From assembly GCF_053078305.1 (NCBI RefSeq), contig NZ_CP166879.1: 64,000 nt of DNA, one strand, 5' to 3'. Shown piece after piece: positions 8,193 to 59,579 of this stretch. The stretch's first letter is position 1, and each line of letters opens with the position of its first letter. The notes under the pieces were generated by a model. It ran no database searches. It was not told the origin of the DNA and saw nothing but the letters and a program-made list of their open reading frames with translations. The position numbers were made by a program, and so were the translations under genes.

Positions 8193-8738
8193 GTGGACGA
8201 TTTGACCGCACAAGCCCTGAAAGATTTTACTGCACGCTACTGCGATGCGTGGCATGAAGAGCATAAAAGCTGGCCGTTAAGTGAGGAACTGTACGGCGTT
8301 CCTTCACCGTGCATTATTTCAACTACTGAAGATGCCGTATACTGGCAACCCCAGCCGTTTACCGGGGAACAAAATGTAAACGCGGTTGAACGCGCTTTTG
8401 ATATTGTGATACAACCCACAATTCATACCTTTTATACGACTCAGTTTGCCGGGGATATGCACGCGCAGTTTGGCGATATCAAACTGACATTGCTGCAAAC
8501 CTGGAGTGAAGACGACTTCCGTCGGGTGCAGGAAAATCTGATTGGTCATCTGGTGACTCAGAAAAGGCTAAAACTGCCACCCACGCTATTTATCGCGACG
8601 CTGGAAGAAGAGTTAGAGGTCATCTCGGTGTGTAATCTCTCCGGTGAAGTGTGTAAAGAGACGCTGGGAACACGTAAACGGACGCATTTAGCCTCAAATC
8701 TTGCGGAATTCCTTAATCAACTTAAGCCTCTTCTGTAA
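8193..8738 (+). CDS. syd: SecY-interacting protein Syd
   Basis: 181 aa ORF matching recalled Syd. Confidence 0.85.
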
Positions 8739-8757
8739 TCCAAATACCCCATCTGGT

Positions 8758-8775
8758 TGTGAGAGATCTCTTACA
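8758..8775. promoter_or_regulatory. UvrY (BarA/UvrY response regulator) binding palindrome upstream of csrB
   Basis: Sequence TGTGAGAGATCTCTTACA, an 18-nt near-palindrome about 175 nt upstream of the csrB 5' end; matches recalled UvrY/SirA box. Confidence 0.7.
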
Positions 8776-8948
8776 GACTCTGTAGGAGATCGCCAGGAAA
8801 TAAGCGAATACTTAAAAAGATAAGAATCGTTATTTTCATTTAAAATCAATATGTTGCTTGTTAATTCCTAACTTTCATATGAAATTTTCCTTAAGGCATT
8901 GTCTGTAAGCGCCTTGTAAGACTTCGCGAAAAAGACGATTCTATCTTC

Positions 8949-9317
8949 GTCGACAGGGAGTCAGACAACGAAGTGAACATCAGGATGATGACACTTCTGA
9001 AGGACACACCAGGATGGTGTTTCAGGGAAAGGCTTCTGGATGAAGCGAAGAGGATGACGCAGGACGCGTTAAAGGACACCTCCAGGATGGAGAATGAGAA
9101 CCGGTCAGGATGATCCGGTGGGTCAGGAAGGCCAGGGACACTTCAGGATGAAGTATCACATCGGGGTGGTGTGAGCAGGAAGCAATAGTTCAGGATGAAC
9201 GATTGGCCGCAAGGCCAGAGGAAAAGTTGTCAAGGATGAGCAGGGAGCAACAAAAGTAGCTGGAATGCTGCGAAACGAACCGGGAGCACTGTGAATACAG
9301 TGCTCCCTTTTTTTATT
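8949..9317 (+). ncRNA. csrB: CsrB small RNA (CsrA-sequestering)
   Basis: About 370 nt non-coding stretch with many CAGGATG / AGGA(T)G GGA-motifs spaced every 15-30 nt; ends in hairpin GGGAGCACTG...CAGTGCTCCC plus T7 run at 9282-9314. Confidence 0.92.
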
Positions 9318-9359
9318 CCTGCTATCCTTCGCGGCAGTTTTTCTTATTGAGGTTGCTTT

Positions 9360-9689
9360 ATGACCACTCATGACCGCGTTCGTCTCCAGTTGCAGGCGCT
9401 TGAAGCGTTACTGCGTGAACATCAGCACTGGCGAAACGATGAACCCCAGCCACATCAATTTAACAGTACCCAACCGTTCTTTATGGACACCATGGAACCA
9501 CTGGAGTGGTTGCAGTGGGTGCTGATCCCGCGAATGCACGATTTGTTAAATAACAACCAGCCGTTACCGGGCGCTTTTGCCGTTGCTCCCTATTATGAAA
9601 TGGCGCTGGCGACGGACCATCCGCAACGCGCGCTTATTCTGGCTGAGTTGGAAAAACTGGATGCTCTTTTTGCGGATGATGCGAGCTAA
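9360..9689 (+). CDS. yqcC: DUF446 protein YqcC
   Basis: 109 aa ORF; stop overlaps truC start (TAATG). Confidence 0.8.
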   Translation: MTTHDRVRLQLQALEALLREHQHWRNDEPQPHQFNSTQPFFMDTMEPLEWLQWVLIPRMHDLLNNNQPLPGAFAVAPYYEMALATDHPQRALILAELEKLDALFADDAS

Positions 9690-10938: not shown

Positions 10939-11372
10939 TATGTTCAGCGAGCGGTAAATGTCGTTTTAGCGGTGCTGAATCGAATCTTTTCAGGCAAATG
11001 CCAGTAAAAACTGCTTCATAGCGCGGATTTTTACTGGCGTTTGCCTGGAGTCAAGCGATCCATTTCATACTCTTCTTTATTTCTTCGTTTTAACCCTTCC
11101 TTTCTTGTTCTTGTTTTCATTTCCGTGAAGTGGATTCCACCGTCCAGGGCTAATGCCAAAATCGGGCCTCATTGAACGCATTAATGTTGTGTTGTTGCAC
11201 GGTGAGCCGCTATGGCGCGCTTTTTATACTGCTATTGCCAGATATAAACACGCGCCGTATTCGGCGAACGACCTATAAAAACGGCAAAAAACACCCTACG
11301 TCACCTCTGATTTCCTGGCGATGTCGCAGTCCAGAGTGAGCGTGGCTAACGCGAATTTTCAGGAGTGCAACA

Positions 11373-12725
11373 ATGAGTTCTTTAAGTCAGGCTGCGAGCA
11401 GTGTGGAAAAACGCACGAATGCTCGTTACTGGATAGTGGTGATGTTGTTTATCGTCACATCCTTCAACTACGGCGACCGCGCTACGCTTTCTATTGCCGG
11501 TTCGGAAATGGCCAAAGATATCGGCCTTGATCCCGTGGGAATGGGCTATGTGTTCTCTGCCTTCTCATGGGCTTATGTTATCGGGCAGATCCCTGGTGGT
11601 TGGTTGCTGGATCGTTTTGGTTCAAAACGCGTCTACTTCTGGTCGATCTTTATCTGGTCGATGTTTACCTTGCTGCAAGGCTTCGTCGATATCTTTAGTG
11701 GATTCGGCATTATCGTTGCCCTGTTTACTCTGCGCTTCCTGGTCGGGCTTGCTGAAGCGCCATCTTTCCCCGGCAACAGTCGCATTGTTGCGGCCTGGTT
11801 TCCGGCGCAGGAAAGGGGAACGGCGGTGTCGATTTTTAACTCCGCTCAATACTTCGCAACGGTGATCTTCGCGCCGATTATGGGCTGGCTGACGCATGAA
11901 GTGGGCTGGTCACACGTCTTCTTCTTTATGGGCGGTCTGGGGATTGTCATCAGCTTTATCTGGTTGAAAGTCATCCACGAGCCAAATCAACATCCGGGGG
12001 TAAATCAGAAAGAGCTGGAGTACATCGCCGCGGGTGGCGCGCTGATCAATATGGATCAGCAAAACACCAAAGTTAAAGTGCCGTTCAGCGTGAAGTGGGG
12101 GCAGATCAAACAACTGCTCGGGTCACGGATGATGATCGGCGTTTATATCGGTCAGTACTGTATTAACGCCCTGACTTACTTTTTCATTACCTGGTTTCCG
12201 GTTTATCTGGTGCAGGCGCGTGGGATGTCGATTCTGAAAGCGGGCTTTGTGGCTTCCGTTCCGGCGGTTTGTGGTTTTATCGGTGGTGTGCTGGGTGGGA
12301 TTATTTCCGACTGGCTGATGCGCCGCACGGGATCGCTGAACATTGCGCGTAAAACACCGATCGTAATGGGCATGTTGCTGTCGATGGTGATGGTGTTCTG
12401 CAACTACGTCAACGTTGAGTGGATGATCATCGGCTTTATGGCGCTGGCCTTCTTCGGTAAGGGCATCGGGGCGCTGGGTTGGGCAGTAATGGCAGATACC
12501 GCGCCAAAAGAGATCAGCGGTCTTTCCGGTGGCCTGTTCAACATGTTCGGTAACATTTCTGGCATCGTCACGCCAATCGCAATTGGTTATATCGTTGGCA
12601 CGACTGGCTCGTTTAATGGGGCGCTGATTTATGTTGGTGTTCATGCCTTAATCGCGGTACTGAGCTACCTGGTGCTGGTGGGCGATATCAAGCGTATCGA
12701 GCTGAAACCTGTCGCGGGGCAATAA
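11373..12725 (+). CDS. gudP: Glucarate/galactarate MFS transporter
   Basis: 450 aa MFS protein, first gene of gudPXD. Confidence 0.85.
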
Positions 12726-12726
12726 G

Positions 12727-14067
12727 ATGACGACACAATCCAGTCCTGTTATTACTGATATGAAAGTCATTCCGGTCGCCGGGCACGATAGCATGTTGCT
12801 TAATATTGGTGGGGCACATAACGCATATTTCACCCGCAATATTGTGGTACTCACCGATAACGCCGGGCATACCGGCATTGGTGAAGCGCCGGGCGGAGAG
12901 GTGATTTATCAGACGCTTGTCGAAGCTATTCCGATGGTGCTGGGCCAGGAAGTTGCGCGCCTGAATAAAGTGGTTCAGCAGGTGCATAAAGGTAATCAGG
13001 CCGCCGATTTTGATACCTTCGGTAAAGGGGCCTGGACCTTTGAATTGCGCGTTAACGCCGTGGCGGCGCTGGAAGCCGCCTTGCTTGACCTGCTAGGTAA
13101 GGCGCTGAATGTTCCGGTCTGCGAACTGTTAGGGCCAGGCAAGCAACGCGATGCTATCACCGTCCTCGGTTATCTGTTTTATATCGGTGATCGGACTAAA
13201 ACCGATCTTCCTTATCTGGAAAATACGCCGGGCAATCATGAGTGGTATCAGTTGCGACATCAGAAAGCGATGAACAGCGAAGCCGTTGTGCGTCTGGCGG
13301 AAGCCTCACAGGATCGCTATGGCTTTAAAGATTTCAAACTTAAGGGCGGGGTGTTACCTGGCGAGCAAGAAATCGACACTGTTCGTGCATTGAAGAAAAG
13401 CTTCCCGGATGCGCGGATTACCGTTGATCCCAACGGTGCCTGGCTGCTTGATGAAGCCATTTCTTTGTGCAAAGGGCTGAATGATGTTCTTACCTATGCC
13501 GAAGATCCATGCGGCGCAGAACAGGGCTTCTCCGGACGTGAAGTGATGGCGGAGTTTCGGCGGGCGACCGGCTTGCCCGTCGCGACTAATATGATCGCCA
13601 CCAACTGGCGCGAAATGGGCCATGCGGTAATGCTCAATGCGGTGGATATTCCACTTGCCGATCCGCATTTCTGGACGCTTTCCGGTGCAGTCCGAGTGGC
13701 GCAGCTTTGCGACGACTGGGGGCTGACCTGGGGCTGCCATTCTAATAACCATTTCGATATCTCTCTGGCGATGTTTACCCATGTGGGCGCGGCGGCACCG
13801 GGTAATCCTACCGCTATCGATACCCACTGGATTTGGCAGGAGGGCGATTGTCGCCTGACCCAAAATCCGCTGGAGATTAAAAACGGAAAAATTGCCGTTC
13901 CTGATGCGCCCGGTCTGGGCGTGGAACTGGACTGGGAACAGGTACAAAAGGCACATGAGGCCTATAAACGTCTGCCTGGCGGTGCGCGTAACGACGCAGG
14001 CCCGATGCAGTACCTGATCCCCGGCTGGACCTTTGACCGTAAACGTCCCGTTTTCGGCCGTCATTGA
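12727..14067 (+). CDS. gudX: Glucarate dehydratase-related protein (enolase superfamily)
   Basis: 446 aa, paralogous to the following gudD ORF. Confidence 0.85.
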
Positions 14068-14087
14068 TTCTGAAAAAGGACATAAAT

Positions 14088-15428
14088 ATGAGTTCTCAAT
14101 TTACGACGCCTGTTGTTACTGAAATGCAGGTCATCCCGGTGGCGGGCCATGACAGTATGCTGATGAATCTGAGTGGTGCACACGCACCGTTCTTCACGCG
14201 TAATATTGTGATTATCAAAGATAATTCTGGTCACACTGGCGTAGGGGAAATTCCCGGCGGCGAGAAAATCCGTAAAACGCTGGAAGATGCGATTCCGCTG
14301 GTAGTGGGTAAAACGCTGGGTGAATACAAAAACGTTCTGACGCTGGTGCGTAATACTTTTGCCGATCGTGATGCCGGCGGGCGCGGTTTGCAGACATTTG
14401 ATTTGCGTACCACTATTCATGTAGTTACCGGGATAGAAGCGGCAATGCTGGATCTGCTGGGGCAGCATCTGGGGGTTAACGTGGCATCCCTGCTGGGCGA
14501 TGGTCAACAGCGTAGCGAAGTCGAAATGCTCGGTTATCTGTTCTTCGTCGGTAATCGCAAAGCCACACCGCTGCCGTATCAAAGCCAGCCGGATGACTCA
14601 TGCGACTGGTATCGCCTGCGTCATGAAGAAGCGATGACGCCGGATGCGGTGGTGCGCCTGGCGGAAGCGGCGTATGAAAAATATGGCTTCAACGATTTCA
14701 AACTGAAAGGCGGTGTACTGGCCGGGGAAGAAGAGGCCGAGTCTATTGTGGCACTGGCGCAACGCTTCCCGCAGGCGCGTATTACGCTCGATCCTAACGG
14801 TGCCTGGTCGCTGAACGAAGCGATTAAAATTGGTAAATACCTGAAAGGTTCGCTGGCTTATGCAGAAGATCCGTGTGGTGCGGAGCAAGGTTTCTCCGGG
14901 CGTGAAGTGATGGCAGAGTTCCGTCGCGCGACTGGCCTGCCGACTGCAACCAATATGATCGCCACCGACTGGCGGCAGATGGGCCATACGCTCTCGTTAC
15001 AATCCGTTGATATCCCGCTGGCGGATCCGCATTTCTGGACGATGCAAGGTTCGGTACGTGTGGCGCAAATGTGCCATGAATTTGGCCTGACCTGGGGTTC
15101 ACACTCTAACAACCACTTCGATATTTCCCTGGCGATGTTTACCCATGTTGCCGCCGCTGCACCGGGTAAAATTACTGCTATTGATACGCACTGGATTTGG
15201 CAGGAAGGCAATCAGCGCCTGACCAAAGAACCGTTTGAGATCAAAGGCGGGCTGGTACAGGTGCCAGAAAAACCGGGGCTGGGTGTAGAAATCGATATGG
15301 ATCAAGTGATGAAAGCCCATGAGCTGTATCAGAAACACGGGCTTGGCGCGCGTGACGATGCGATGGGAATGCAGTATCTGATTCCTGGCTGGACGTTCGA
15401 TAACAAGCGCCCGTGCATGGTGCGTTAA
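14088..15428 (+). CDS. gudD: Glucarate dehydratase
   Basis: ATG at 14088 preceded by AAAAGGA RBS gives 446 aa; ORF track offers upstream start 14064. Confidence 0.88.
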
Positions 15429-15441
15429 GACAAAAAACCAA

Positions 15442-15464
15442 AACCGGCTCTATCTGGAGCCGGT
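15442..15464. terminator. Hairpin AACCGGCTC-tatc-GAGCCGGTT between convergent gudD and barA
   Basis: 9-bp perfect stem; A-run on plus strand (T-run on minus) fits termination of barA; no T-run after it on plus strand. Confidence 0.5.
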
Positions 15465-15490
15465 TTGAGACTGATGCCAAACACAAAATT

Positions 15491-15588
15491 GCCTGATGCG
15501 CTACGCTTATCAGGCCTACATGCTTTTTAATTTATTGAATTTAATTGGTTTTGTAGGCCGGATAAGGCGTTAACGCCGCATCCGGCAT
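15491..15588. repeat. REP/BIME-type extragenic palindromes
   Basis: Two inverted GCCTGATGCGCTACGCTTATCAGGCCTACA-like units typical of E. coli REP elements. Confidence 0.75.
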
Positions 15589-15660
15589 AAACACAGGCAC
15601 TTTGTCACCAATCTGAAACCAGCGTCATAAAAAGCCGATTGCTACTCGACAAGACGTCCG

Positions 15661-18417
15661 TTACCCGAGAATTTTGCTGGCTTCGCGCGCGACATTATCC
15701 ATCTCGTCCAACAGTTCCAGCAGCTCCGGCTCCAAATCTTCTTCTTTAGTACCGCTACGTAGCTGTTGTTCGATCAGTTGGCAGAGATTCTTCATACGCG
15801 GCACACCGCTATAGCCGCAACTGCCATGCAGTTTATGAATCAAATCAACCAGGCCTTCCGGGTTTTCTCCAACCAGCTGTTCCTCAACTTTGTTGCGAAC
15901 TTCAGGCAGGAAATCGAGTAACATTTGCAGCATATCGCGCGCTAAATCGGTTTTTCCTGCTGCCTGGCGTAGTGCCAGTTGCCAGTCGAGGGTCGCATTC
16001 GGGTTCACCACAATTTCGTTGACTTCGGGCGTCACGACGCGAGACGAAATACCGCTGCCAGGCTTGTAGCGCAACAACAAATTATGCAATCGCTCTTCTT
16101 CAATCGGTTTCGCCAGATAATCGCTCATCCCTGCGCCAAGCAGCTTCTCTTTTTGCCCGGCCATTGCATGCGCCGTTACCGCGATAACCGGCGTTTGTTG
16201 CTGATGGGGGAGCTGGTGGATGAGCTCGCAGGCCCGAATGCCATCCATGTCCGGCATTTGAATATCCATTAAGATCAAATCGAACGGCATCTGTTTCGCC
16301 CGTTCAACCGCCTGATGCCCGCTATCGCAAAGTTCCACATGTTGCACCATATCTTCCAGCAATGCGCCGATAAGTTTCAGGTTAGCGGGGTTGTCATCAA
16401 CCGCCATGACTGTCATTGCCAGCTTACTTTCATCGGTTACAGGCAAAAGCGTGTTTTGTTTGTGATGACAAAATTCCGTCAGGGCAGGCAGCAGGCGCGT
16501 AGGTGTTAATGGTTTCAGCAGACACGCGCCGATACCATCTTGCTTGAGTTTTTCAGCATTGACTTGTGCATGGCAAGGAAGTGCCAGCATCAGGAAATCG
16601 GTCATCGATACCGCTTTCGCTAATCGCTCATGTTGCATTGTTAGCGGCTCGCGGAAGGTCACCGCGATGCCTAACAACATCATGTCGTAATGCGCGGGAG
16701 GCAGCGCGGAGAACGTTGGGCTATAAACCACTTCCAGCGGCGTTTCACTTAAAATATCCAGCGTGCATTGCGCTGCTGCGGAGTTTGGTTCGACATAGGC
16801 CAGGCGTTTACCGGCGAGGCACTGGGTGGATGGCCCTTCAATAATAATGTTCGGGTTCAGATCGAGATTAATGTGGAACCAGAAAGTTGAACCGCGATTC
16901 GGCTGGCTATGGAACGAAATATCGCCGCCCATTTCATTAACCAGTTTTTGTGTAATCACCAGCCCCAGCCCGGTGCCACCATGACGGCGGGAAATACTGG
17001 CATCAGCCTGTCGGAAGGCCTGGAATAAGCGCGATTGATCACGTTCAGGAATACCAATGCCGGTATCCCGAATCTGCACTTCAATCTGCACTTTGGTATT
17101 ACTCAGCGCACGTTTTTCTACCAGAATATCAATGTTGCCATTCTCGGTGAATTTAATTGCATTCCCCACCAGGTTAGTGATGATTTGCTGTAATCGCAGT
17201 GGGTCGCCGATCACGTTATCAGGCACGTCGCTTTTAATATTGAGCGTCAGTTCCAACCCTTTATCGTGAGAAGAATGTGCCAGCAGAGTAACGACTTCAT
17301 CCAGCGTGCTGCGTAGTGGGAATGGAATACTTTCCAGAATCAGCTTACCTGCTTCCAGTTTCGAGAAGTCGAGAACATCATTAATAATTGCCAGCAAATT
17401 ATTTGCCGAACGTTCAATCGTATTCAGGTGATCGCGCTGCGTTGGTGTTAATTCTGTTTTCAGCGTCAGGCGGGTAAAGCCAATAACACCATTCAGTGGT
17501 GTACGCAGCTCGTGTGACATATTTGCCAGAAACTCGGATTTAATACGTGCCGCTTCCTGGGCGCGCTTTTTCGCCAGATCCAACTCAACGTTCTGAATTT
17601 CCATCTGCTCCAGCGTTTCACGCAGATCGGACGTCGCCTGGTCGATATTGTGCTGCATCTCTTCGTGATAAGCAGCCAGCGACATTGCCATCGAGTTGAT
17701 ACCGTTTTTCAGCATATCCAGCTCGCCGAGCATAAATCCTTCCACCCGGCTGTCGAGTTGCCCGCGACGGATGCGGTCGACGGTATTCACCATGTTGCGA
17801 ATCGGACCGGTTACATCGCGCATTAAGCGCCAGCCAAAAATAAGCGCAATACCGATACAAAACAGCATCATCACGCTGGAAATAAAGATCTCTTTATATT
17901 GCTGCAAGCGAACCGATTTAAGATCCAGCTCAAGCGCAATATATCCCAACATATTTTGACTATTTTTGGCATCGCTACTGGGCGATTCGTCGGGGGAGTA
18001 ACTCTCAGAAATAATCGGCGTGCGCAGGATCATAATATCGCCGTCACGAGTGACAGTGAGCTGGCGAGGAAACGGCACGTTGCTGCCGAGCTGCATTGAT
18101 GAGGGATCAAGATGAAAATTGGAGGTGACAAAGAGTCGGTTATTTTCATCATAAACCGAAATCGCGCGAACAATATCGGAATGGCGACGATGCAGTACGC
18201 TTATTAACTGACCGATAGATTCGCGATTTTGCAGGCTCATGCCATATTCAGTAGAAACTGCAAGCGGCTCAATAATGCTGGCACCGGCATCTTCCAGTTG
18301 ACGCTGCAAGTCGTTATAGCGATGCACGACGAAAAAGATACTCAGCAATAAACCAATAAGGACGGTCGGTGCCAGGATCAGAATCATCATGCGTGCGCGC
18401 AGGCTGTAGTTGGTCAT
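15661..18417 (-). CDS. barA: Hybrid sensor histidine kinase BarA
   Basis: 918 aa; TM/HAMP, HisKA (HELRTPLN), HATPase, receiver and HPt domains readable in translation. Confidence 0.92.
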
Positions 18418-18473: not shown

Positions 18474-19775
18474 ATGGCGCAATTCTACTCTGCAAAACGA
18501 CGCACGACGACGCGTCAGATCATAACCGTTTCAGTCAACGACCTCGACTCTTTTGGTCAGGGCGTGGCGCGACATAACGGCAAAACGCTATTTATCCCCG
18601 GATTATTGCCGCAGGAAAACGCGGAAGTTACTGTTACTGAAGATAAAAAACAGTATGCCCGCGCTAAAGTCGTACGCCGGTTAAGCGATAGCCCGGAACG
18701 CGAAACGCCACGCTGTCCTCATTTTGGCGTATGCGGCGGCTGTCAGCAACAACACGCCAGCGTGGATTTACAGCAGCGAAGCAAAAGTGCGGCACTCGCC
18801 CGATTAATGAAACACGAAGTCTCTGAAGTGATCGCCGATGTTCCCTGGGGCTATCGCCGTCGCGCGCGTTTAAGTCTGAACTACTTACCGAAAACACAGC
18901 AACTTCAGATGGGGTTTCGCAAAGCGGGCTCCAGTGACATTGTCGACGTTAAACAATGCCCCATTTTAGTGCCCCAACTTGAAGCATTGCTGCCCAAAGT
19001 CAGGGCATGCCTGGGCAGCTTACAAGCTATGCGCCATCTTGGTCATGTTGAACTGGTACAGGCAACCAGCGGCACGCTGATGATTTTGCGCCATACCGCA
19101 CCGCTAAGTTCGGCAGATCGCGAAAAACTGGAACGCTTTTCGCATTCTGAAGGCCTGGATCTGTATCTCGCCCCCGATAGTGAGATACTCGAAACCGTCT
19201 CTGGTGAGATGCCCTGGTATGACTCAAATGGGTTGCGCTTAACTTTTAGCCCGCGCGATTTTATTCAGGTCAATGCGGGTGTGAACCAAAAAATGGTAGC
19301 GCGTGCGTTGGAATGGCTGGATGTGCAACCTGAAGATCGCGTACTGGATCTGTTCTGCGGTATGGGCAACTTTACACTGCCATTGGCGACACAAGCTGCC
19401 AGTGTGGTCGGTGTAGAAGGTGTTCCGGCGCTGGTGGAAAAAGGCCAGCAGAATGCGCGTCTTAATGGCTTACAGAATGTGACGTTTTATCACGAAAATC
19501 TTGAAGAAGATGTCACAAAGCAGCCGTGGGCGAAAAACGGCTTCGATAAAGTGTTGCTGGACCCTGCGCGAGCAGGTGCCGCAGGTGTTATGCAGCAAAT
19601 TATAAAACTGGAACCTATTCGTATAGTTTATGTATCCTGTAACCCTGCAACGCTGGCTCGGGATAGCGAAGCGTTATTAAAAGCAGGATATACCATTGCG
19701 CGACTGGCGATGCTGGATATGTTCCCACACACGGGACATCTGGAATCGATGGTACTTTTCTCGCGCGTTAAATAG
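18474..19775 (+). CDS. rlmD: 23S rRNA (uracil1939-C5)-methyltransferase
   Basis: 433 aa; TRAM-like N-terminus with Cys cluster ([10 protein letters not shown]), SAM MTase fold. Confidence 0.88.
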
Positions 19776-31645: not shown

Positions 31646-32528
31646 GAGTTCCCCGCGCTAGCGGGGATAAACCGTAATGAGTCAGGGGAATACCGAATAT
31701 TTTATAGAGTTCCCCGCGCTAGCGGGGATAAACCGAAATTTATCGAGATCGGCAGGGGTTACTGACAGAGTTCCCCGCGCTAGCGGGGATAAACCGGCCG
31801 TTAATCCGGACTGCCAGCGAATAACGCTGAGTTCCCCGCGCTAGCGGGGATAAACCGCAACATATTTAAACGATTTAAGCCAGGCATATGAGTTCCCCGC
31901 GCTAGCGGGGATAAACCGGGATTCATCACGCGGTTATCCGGGGGCCGTTAGAGTTCCCCGCGCTAGCGGGGATAAACCGGTGGTTGCGGGGTTATCGGTG
32001 GTAGTCACAATGAGTTCCCCGCGCTAGCGGGGATAAACCGCTCCAGCTCGATATCACACGACGCTATATCAGGAGTTCCCCGCGCTAGCGGGGATAAACC
32101 GGAAACAGCGCCCGCCGGTGCTGCGTTACCGTGGAGTTCCCCGCGCTAGCGGGGATAAACCGCCAACAAACTCATTTGCACTGGATTCGTGGATGAGTTC
32201 CCCGCGCTAGCGGGGATAAACCGACCGGCGCAATTGTTTTTCAGCAGCACCCGGCGAGTTCCCCGCGCTAGCGGGGATAAACCGTATTTTCTTTGTTGCG
32301 GTAGGCAATATCGCCAGAGTTCCCCGCGCTAGCGGGGATAAACCGGTATTTTGTCACGACCAGCACGAGGCCGAATAGAGTTCCCCGCGCCAGCGGGGAT
32401 AAACCGCCCCAACTCATGCCCACATGAAAAACGTTGACGAGTTCCCCGCGCCAGCGGGGATAAACCGCCGCAAAAGGTATTATTTTTATCCGTCAGTACG
32501 AGTTCCCCGCGCCAGCGGGGATAAACCA
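31646..32528 (+). CRISPR. CRISPR array, 15 repeats of 29 bp, 14 spacers of 32 bp (type I-E repeat)
   Basis: Exact 61-bp periodicity; 12 repeats GAGTTCCCCGCGCTAGCGGGGATAAACCG then 3 leader-distal repeats with CCAGCG loop; terminal repeat ends ...AACCA. Confidence 0.97.
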
Positions 32529-48959: not shown

Positions 48960-49223
48960 ATATTGCCGGATAAATTAAACGCCTCTGTCAGAAATGATGG
49001 GGGCGTTTTTATTTTGCGAGCAGCATTCCTGATTTTAAACGTGAACGCCGCTGGAAGAATTAACAGGTATAGAATGGTGTTGGGTGCTTGAGGCTGTCTG
49101 GCGTTAAGCATTCGCGAGGTTCCAGATGGACAAAAGCCCCAGGCGATATTTCTATCAACCTGAGGCCAGCGTTCGAACCTAAGCAATTCGAATGTTAGTC
49201 TCTTCTTTGCAGGGAGGCAAGAC

Positions 49224-49376
49224 ATGCTGACAAAATATGCCCTTGTGGCAATCATCGTACTGTGTTGTACAGTACTGGGATTCACGCTGATGGTAGGCGA
49301 CTCGTTGTGTGAGTTGAGTATCAGAGAACGTGGTATGGAGTTTAAGGCTGTTCTCGCTTACGAATCGAAGAAGTAG
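49224..49376 (+). CDS. hokX: Hok/Gef-family type I toxin (probable hokX)
   Basis: 50-codon ORF, not in the ORF track because under 60 aa; hydrophobic N-terminal TM segment plus conserved Hok C-terminal pattern (LCEL..R...EF.A.LAYESK); followed by a hairpin. Confidence 0.65.
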
Positions 49377-58579: not shown

Positions 58580-59579
58580 GTGTTCCCCGCGCCAGCGGGG
58601 ATAAACCGGGGGGGCAATAATATGTGCGGCGGATCACCAGGTGTTCCCCGCGCCAGCGGGGATAAACCGTCGGAAAAATGGCTGGCCTCAACGGTGAAAA
58701 CGTGTTCCCCGCGCCAGCGGGGATAAACCGCCAGGGTGAAACTTTTCGCTGACGTAAATAAAGTGTTCCCCGCGCCAGCGGGGATAAACCGACAATCACA
58801 TATACGACGCGAGACGGAGATCGGTGTTCCCCGCGCCAGCGGGGATAAACCGTGATGGGCGAATACAAGCGCTGGCGCAACGAGGTGTTCCCCGCGCCAG
58901 CGGGGATAAACCCGGCATTCTTAACCGGCGCAACAAGGGGGGCGCGTGTTCCCCGCGCCAGCGGGGATAAACCGGTTAACTCCAGGTGGCGCGGCAGTGT
59001 TCAGAAGTGTTCCCCGCGCCAGCGGGGATAAACCGTGCTCTCATTTGTGTCGGCATCACTCGCGTCGGTGTTCCCCGCGCCAGCGGGGATAAACCGTCTG
59101 CCGCGAGCTGGTCTACGCCTACGCCATGGTGTTCCCCGCGCCAGCGGGGATAAACCGACATATGCCACAACCAGGCGAAGAAAAGTGTTCCCCGCGCCAG
59201 CGGGGATAAACCGCCCGTCACCGACGCGCAGTGGCGCTACCGTGAGTGTTCCCCGCGCCAGCGGGGATAAACCGGTCGCTGGGTTATTTTGTGTTGTGGG
59301 GCGATCGTGTTCCCCGCGCCAGCGGGGATAAACCGCTCATATTCGGATTGATCGTGTGTTTCGGTTTGTGTTCCCCGCGCCAGCGGGGATAAACCTGCGT
59401 ATATCTGTTGATGCGCACGGCGTGGCGGGTGTTCCCCGCGCCAGCGGGGATAAACCGAATGATTTAATACCAGACGCAGAGTGCCACACGTGTTCCCCGC
59501 GCCAGCGGGGATAAACCGGGCGCACTGGATGCGATGATGGATATCACTTAGAATTCCCCGCCCCTGCGGTAGAACACCC
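58580..59579 (+). CRISPR. CRISPR array, 17 repeats (GTGTTCCCCGCGCCAGCGGGGATAAACCG), 16 spacers
   Basis: 61-bp periodicity except one 56-bp unit (27-nt spacer at 59158-59184); degenerate terminal repeat GAATTCCCCGCCCCTGCGGTAGAACACCC at 59551-59579. Confidence 0.97.

Follow-up and report, generated by a model that had tools for sequence, protein, structure and literature searches.

The interval 8758-9317 of the DNA analysed here (a stretch of 64,000 nucleotides, referred to below as the window) raises two questions: whether it carries the gene for the regulatory RNA CsrB together with the upstream site of its activator UvrY, and whether its position some 6 kb from barA, the gene of the kinase that feeds this circuit, has any significance beyond the inherited order of genes. 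An earlier note, made from the letters alone, had presented the interval as known biology and a useful anchor for the annotation of the window. We agree with that assessment and find the anchor sound.

Identity and neighbourhood of the csrB locus

The presence of the csrB sRNA, which the earlier note had proposed checking against Rfam, was borne out when the whole window was scanned with that collection. The scan returned a match to CsrB (RF00018) at 8958-9317 on the plus strand, which spans model positions 1-356 of 356 and, with 384 bits (E 1e-111), lies above the gathering score of 71. In the curated record of Escherichia coli K-12, csrB (b4408) is a 369-nt non-coding RNA encoded between syd and yqcC, and it aligns to 8949-9317 with differences at 3 of 369 positions (9000, 9115 and 9288). 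The entire spacer between syd and yqcC (8739-9359) aligns with that of K-12 over 621 ungapped columns with six substitutions, those upstream of the RNA start being at 8850, 8857 and 8868. None of these differences touches a defined motif, except for one that falls on an N position of the IHF consensus. Two of the three differences within the RNA turn a G.U pair into a Watson-Crick pair: at 9115 the window has C where K-12 has T, within a GGA hairpin, and at 9288 it has A where K-12 has G, within the terminator stem. The interval 8758-9317 is almost certainly the E. coli csrB locus, ordinary and well studied, and nothing found here contradicts this identification. What the locus holds is already known, textbook Csr biology in its expected place. 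The boundaries proposed in the earlier note are also apt, as the interval opens on the UvrY palindrome as published and closes on the final base of the annotated RNA. The features of the locus and its surroundings are as follows.

8193-8738 (+): syd, the upstream flanking gene, with its stop codon 19 bp before the UvrY box (NCBIfam NF003439, 286.7 bits)
8758-8775 (no strand assigned): upstream activating site for phosphorylated UvrY (UvrY-P), an 18-nt near-perfect palindrome, TGTGAGAGATCTCTTACA (exact motif match)
8781-8789 (+): additional element resembling a half-site, TGTAGGAGA, 5 bp past the palindrome on its downstream side (read from the sequence)
8844-8856 (+): match AATCAATATGTTG to the IHF consensus WATCAANNNNTTR, at about -105 to -93 (pattern search)
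8904-8909 and 8915-8920 (+): half-site-like TGTAAG repeats
8914-8942 (+): inferred core promoter, with a -35 element TTGTAA at 8914-8919, a 17-bp spacer and a -10 element GATTCT at 8937-8942 (geometry relative to +1 = 8949, and conservation)
8949-9317 (+): csrB, a 369-nt non-coding RNA that sequesters CsrA (Rfam RF00018 and alignment to K-12 b4408)
9273-9281 (+): unstructured AAACGAACC segment with the RNase E 'necessary cleavage site' (positions from PMC5027483 mapped with +1 = 8949)
9282-9314 (+): intrinsic terminator with an 11-bp stem (7 G-C pairs), a 4-nt loop and seven T (terminator scan)
9360-9689 (+): yqcC, the downstream flanking gene, starting 43 nt past the 3' end of csrB (list of open reading frames; yqcC in K-12 and strain PE164)
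15661-18417 (-): barA, a hybrid sensor histidine kinase of 918 aa that phosphorylates UvrY (NCBIfam NF008318 equivalog)

The gene order is queF (-), then syd, csrB, yqcC, truC, yqcA, gudP, gudX and gudD (all +), barA (-) and rlmD (+), so that barA is convergent with the csrB-yqcC-truC-yqcA-gudPXD block. The annotations of K-12 and of E. coli PE164 show the same order. The barA gene had been given the coordinates 15661-18417 in the earlier note, and its position, strand and identity are all correct. The open reading frame scores 1623.9 bits against the BarA equivalog NF008318 (cut-off 890), with residues 1-917 lying on profile positions 1-917 of 920, and its product is 99% identical to that of the E. 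coli species representative. This end-to-end alignment implies that the predicted protein has the tripartite BarA architecture of transmitter, receiver and HPt. The window had further been described as holding two of the three components of the circuit, and this also stands, with uvrY being the missing one. A tblastn search of the window with K-12 UvrY did not find uvrY and matched only the receiver domain of BarA (29% identity). Similarly, csrA was not found in the window by tblastn with a CsrA query sequence.

The spacer region between syd and yqcC was found in 5425 of 5426 complete E. coli genomes. The window appears to be E. coli-like chromosomal DNA that is identical to no complete genome in the collection, because the best identities reached 99.7% for the spacer and 99.5% for the first 25 kb. 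The csrB anchor fixes the window as that part of the E. coli chromosome in which sdaB and ppnN are followed by csrB and barA and then by a CRISPR-Cas region. Two CRISPR arrays with a periodicity of 61 bp lie at 31706-32040 and 58580-59457, with a type I-E repeat of the form G[AT]GTTCCCCGCGC[CT]AGCGGGGATAAACCG. Collinearity with strain ETEC6335 places the second array after a type I-E cas operon (cas3 to cas2e), and identity to that strain falls to 94-96% over the cas region. A match to the Rfam family sok (RF01794, 111.7 bits) was found at 49082-49239 (+), with an adjacent open reading frame at about 49222-49374. By collinearity with the annotation of the closest complete genome, a protein of the Hok/Gef family is encoded here, directly upstream of cas3. 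The region 49082-49374 looks like a chromosomal toxin-antitoxin locus of the hok/sok type.

The RNA gene is easily missed, as RefSeq automatic annotation of other E. coli leaves the 621-bp spacer featureless. The csrB ncRNA is listed in the curated K-12 record, but not in the automatic annotation of PE164. In that genome, RefSeq/PGAP shows no feature between syd and yqcC (L001:10540-11160), yet csrB is there (nhmmer, 367 bits). Among the ten best spacer matches listed from the complete E. coli genomes, only syd and yqcC are annotated under the match.

The CsrB RNA, its promoter and the proposed mechanism

The many GGA motifs attributed to csrB in the earlier note were counted. The 369-nt RNA contains 22, the same number as reported for E. 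coli CsrB (PMC7652899). Elsewhere in the window, on both strands, no 360-nt frame is as rich, the next best holding 13 GGA and the mean being 5.1 (sd 2.6). However, the 360-nt stretch of the Rfam hit has 21 GGA against 12.0 +/- 2.7 in mononucleotide shuffles (maximum 23 in 2000), and the G/A-rich composition of csrB accounts for part of the excess. Because shuffles of this stretch already average 12.0, the count alone is suggestive and not decisive. The placement of the motifs carries more weight: in the Rfam consensus, 11 hairpin loops carry GGA and only the twelfth, that of the terminator, is without it, and 17 of the 22 motifs are fully unpaired in the minimum free energy fold. This fold has an energy of -122.7 kcal/mol, with z = -4.83 relative to dinucleotide shuffles. 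RNase E cleavage at A327 and A331 has been reported to start the decay of CsrB (PMC5027483). These positions correspond to 9275 and 9279 in the window, both of which are A and lie inside GAAACGAAC.

Conservation of the fold was assessed by projecting the Rfam consensus structure, which was not derived from these sequences, on a MAFFT alignment of 33 homologues taken from the species comparison described below. Standard pairs occupy 94.6% of the cells, a share that falls to 35-52% once the 3' partners are slid by 1-3 columns. Both sides are changed in 19 pairs, where the slid controls give 6-13. None of 500 shuffles reaches any of the observed values of the pairing measures. Helix 12, the terminator, is paired in 100% of cases across the homologues, with two of its pairs changed on both sides. 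The 3' segment from GGAAAAGTTGTCA to the terminator, including the RNase E site, is nearly invariant in the 33 homologues. Identity of the homologous RNAs to csrB of the window ranges from 96% down to 58%, and each contains 20-28 GGA motifs (median 23).

These data also bear on the idea that the stretch encodes something other than CsrB, either a different Csr/Rsm sponge (CsrC or RsmX/Y/Z) or a protein. Hairpins rich in GGA are common to all members of the clan to which these sponges belong, and mechanically called open reading frames of 22-71 aa do overlap the region. However, CsrB is the best family in clan CL00106 (of which cmscan keeps only the best match), at full length and with 384 bits, and the RNA is the positional orthologue of K-12 csrB with only the three differences given above. 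A coding function is opposed by the behaviour of the homologues, in which substitutions preserve base pairs and not reading frames and indels are often not multiples of three. The small open reading frames (called at 20 aa or more) were rejected as genes on these grounds. Any identity other than CsrB is extremely improbable, and the stretch is treated as csrB in what follows.

Upstream of the RNA, the UvrY palindrome claimed in the earlier note was found exactly, and at its published position. The sequence TGTGAGAGATCTCTTACA occupies 8758-8775 and is the sole site in the window with three mismatches or fewer (0.03 expected). It spans -191 to -174 relative to the csrB start (+1 = 8949), with its centre at -183/-182. 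A UvrY site of identical sequence and position was defined for E. coli csrB by ChIP-exo and DNase I footprinting (Zere et al. 2015, PMC4682653). Occupancy of the K-12 site was documented by ChIP-exo, ChIP-PCR and footprinting, and binding in vivo was almost wholly dependent on BarA (PMC4682653). An additional half-site at a spacing of 5 bp from the palindrome has also been described for E. coli csrB (PMC4682653), and the element TGTAGGAGA takes this place in the window.

The IHF match at 8844-8856 falls between the UvrY site and the core promoter. A putative IHF site has been reported between the two regions of UvrY crosslinking, with CsrB falling about 10-fold without IHF (PMC4682653), and we infer that the 13-mer at 8844-8856 is the site marked in the figure of that paper. 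The IHF consensus WATCAANNNNTTR occurs nine times in the window, against 2.6 expected, a count reached by none of 100 shuffles. The hexamers of the core promoter are placed from geometry and conservation only, because a sigma-70 consensus scan of 8600-9500 called no promoter at its threshold. The absence of a consensus call fits a csrB core promoter that is weak and activator-dependent. The proximal interval of UvrY crosslinking extends from -56 to +25 (PMC4682653), and the predicted core promoter falls inside it.

Across 35 csrB copies, the UvrY box is exact in 25, and the rest have at most four mismatches; in some copies it appears in a reverse-complement form, TGTAAGAGATCTCTCACA. Its start falls between -189 and -195 in every copy except that of locus L012, where a split hit produced a measuring artefact. 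In an alignment of 34 promoters, conserved blocks are confined to the palindrome, the adjacent half-site (kept as TGTAGGAGA or TGTGAGAGA), an IHF-like CA....TTA, the -35 and -10 regions (CTTGTAAG and GATTCT-AT) and the start of the RNA. The distance of the UvrY box (about -190) and the GGA count are rigidly kept while the sequence of the RNA drifts.

This arrangement is consistent with the mechanism known from K-12. To the account that follows, the present analysis contributes sequence identity, structure, motif content, promoter architecture and conservation; binding, activation and decay are taken from the K-12 literature. BarA, encoded 6.3 kb away, would sense short-chain carboxylates, among them formate and acetate, and phosphorylate UvrY, which is encoded elsewhere. 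The kinase is stimulated by formate, acetate and similar carboxylates (PMC4682653, PMC7652899, PMC5027483). UvrY-P bound to the palindrome at -191 to -174 would then activate a weak promoter of the sigma-70 type from a distance, and IHF may aid this activation by bending the DNA at about -100. Full activation of csrB is known to need IHF (PMC4682653, PMC7652899, PMC5027483). Of the roughly 22 GGA motifs that the 369-nt transcript would present, most are in the short loops of hairpins or in single-stranded spacers; the motifs would bind many CsrA dimers and draw CsrA off its mRNA targets. CsrB has been reported to bind multiple CsrA dimers through GGA and so to relieve the control of mRNAs by CsrA (PMC7652899, PMC5027483). 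Decay would begin when RNase E cuts the unstructured AAACGAAC ahead of the terminator; CsrA on the neighbouring RNA would block RNase E, a block that CsrD and EIIA-Glc would overcome. This corresponds to published work on decay, in which RNase E acts at a site preceding the terminator and is blocked by adjacent CsrA, until CsrD together with unphosphorylated EIIA-Glc lifts the block (PMC4682653, PMC7652899, PMC5027483).

Linkage of csrB and barA across species

In the window, the 3' end of csrB (9317) and the stop of barA (15661) are separated by 6,343 bp. By simple arithmetic after the fact, the prior chance that two specified loci lie no more than 6.3 kb apart, given a genome size of about 5 Mb, is about 0.25%. 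The linkage was examined in 71 loci (designated by L and a number) obtained by scanning for the BarA protein in one genome per species, each with up to 10 kb of flank on either side, and csrB homologues were sought in these loci by nhmmer with csrB of the window. A homologue lies 1.7-9.5 kb past the barA stop, on the opposite strand, in every locus of Enterobacteriaceae with enough flank. The linkage was found in 33 loci, comprising Enterobacteriaceae and Pantoea stewartii, and in all of them csrB is between syd and yqcC. The distance from csrB to barA is 1.7 kb in Escherichia albertii, 6.3 kb in the E. coli species representative, 3.3-8.9 kb in Citrobacter and 9.5 kb in P. stewartii (Erwiniaceae). 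The two genes are also linked in Enterobacter, Kluyvera, Pluralibacter, Kosakonia, Shimwellia, Mangrovibacter, Cedecea and Siccibacter.

The variation in distance comes mainly from the presence or absence of gudPXD or other cargo between yqcA and barA. This interval (10939-15660 in the window, and its equivalents in L003-L053) is a spot of variable cargo. The gudPXD genes are present in E. coli and in most Citrobacter and Enterobacter, and they are missing from E. albertii, Pluralibacter, Cedecea and Citrobacter sp. R56. The gudP gene of E. coli PE164 is interrupted by an IS3 element.

In one locus, from the metagenome-assembled genome (MAG) of an uncultured member of the Enterobacteriaceae (CALYPF010000002.1, L029:15981-17038), csrB occurs twice in tandem, with 98.7% identity between the copies and about 320 bp separating them. 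Both copies come with a promoter and a diverged UvrY box of their own (TGTAAGATATCTCTCACA and TGTAGGAGATCTCTTACA). The pair could be a recent duplication or an artefact of MAG assembly. Duplications of csrB have been described in Vibrio (PMC6262261).

Outside the Enterobacteriaceae, 11 full-flank loci without an nhmmer hit were searched with Rfam, with L049 as positive control, and no further CsrB was found. The loci in which Rfam thus detected no CsrB within 10 kb of barA are from Erwinia endophytica, Mixta, two further Pantoea, [Erwinia] mediterraneensis, Rahnella, Rouxiella, Yersinia, Edwardsiella, Moritella and Alcanivorax. For the Erwiniaceae, such a negative is not proof of absence, because the fetched flank ends at yqcA: this gene lies at the very end of the fetched DNA in Erwinia, Mixta, [Erwinia] mediterraneensis and Pantoea sp. 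WMus005 (L034, L035, L054 and L055), and likewise at its edge in a Pantoea MAG locus with a shorter flank (L045). In these five loci csrB is probably located just beyond the fetched flank. In the Yersiniaceae and Hafniaceae loci, a barA orthologue is present and the yqcA-truC-yqcC-syd block is not found near it within the 10-kb flank. Candidatus Pantoea persica (L057) has a reduced genome in which the usual block from gud to csrB is missing; two hits to sRNAs of the OmrA/B family (L057:17109-17216 and 18918-18994) lie a few kb past its barA.

The closeness of csrB and barA is best read as inherited, lineage-specific synteny of the block rlmD-barA ... yqcA-truC-yqcC-csrB-syd-queF as a whole, because Enterobacteriaceae and P. 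stewartii have the linkage and the representatives of Yersiniaceae, Hafniaceae, Moritella and Alcanivorax are without csrB within 10 kb of barA. The block is present in Enterobacteriaceae and in at least one member of the Erwiniaceae, which makes the adjacency an old one. The earlier note had called the two genes near neighbours about 6 kb apart. As a statement of distance this holds, but it should not be read as functional coupling, since the spacing ranges between 1.7 and 9.5 kb among the linked loci, and the Yersiniaceae and Hafniaceae representatives lack the linkage.

It has to be considered whether selection keeps csrB near barA, for instance so that the sensor stays joined to its main output RNA through recombination or transfer, or on account of a shared chromosomal neighbourhood that affects expression. 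The persistence of the linkage in all sampled genera of Enterobacteriaceae and in P. stewartii, despite the turnover of cargo between yqcA and barA, would speak for such selection, as would the position of yqcA at the fetched edge in four full-flank Erwiniaceae loci and the Pantoea MAG, which suggests that the block continues there. However, the unrelated genes rlmD, truC, yqcC, syd and queF are equally syntenic and in the same order, and the signal between kinase and RNA is carried by the diffusible UvrY, whose gene is about 930 kb from csrB in K-12. Moreover, the window has no second site resembling the UvrY box (three mismatches or fewer) near barA or elsewhere, and Yersinia, Rahnella, Rouxiella and Edwardsiella all have barA without csrB or yqcA-truC-yqcC within 10 kb. 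As far as titles and abstracts go, none of the papers found to mention csrB, barA and synteny takes up a linkage of the two genes. Selected linkage is improbable on this evidence, and passive synteny is far more likely. Nothing indicates that the distance between csrB and barA matters to the circuit, which works in trans via UvrY. With passive synteny as the preferred reading, the species comparison adds the new information that linkage to barA is a matter of synteny at the level of the family; this is modestly useful context and not a discovery.

Comparison with known systems

The locus is nearly the same as K-12 csrB (b4408). The two share the position between syd and yqcC, the length of 369 nt, the 22 GGA motifs, the UvrY palindrome centred at -183/-182, the TGTAGGAGA element, the terminator and the RNase E site, and differ by 6 substitutions in 621 spacer positions, three in the promoter region and three in the RNA. 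CsrB of other Enterobacteriaceae (Citrobacter, Enterobacter, Kosakonia, Cedecea and others) and the CsrB/RsmB of P. stewartii have the same flanking genes, position of the UvrY box, 20-28 GGA motifs, 3' segment, terminator and linkage to barA. They differ in RNA identity, which declines from 96% to 58%, and in the distance to barA of 1.7-9.5 kb.

The more distant relatives in clan CL00106, CsrC of E. coli and RsmX, RsmY and RsmZ of Pseudomonas and Legionella, are shorter than CsrB, have fewer GGA sites and occur in other genomic contexts. They form distinct Rfam families, and it is the CsrB model that gives the best clan match here. Like CsrB, they are GGA-rich sponges that sequester CsrA or RsmA, and they are likewise controlled by a system of the BarA/UvrY (GacS/GacA) type through an upstream palindrome (PMC4682653, PMC7652899). 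In csrC this palindrome is less symmetric than in csrB, and csrC has no need of IHF (PMC4682653).
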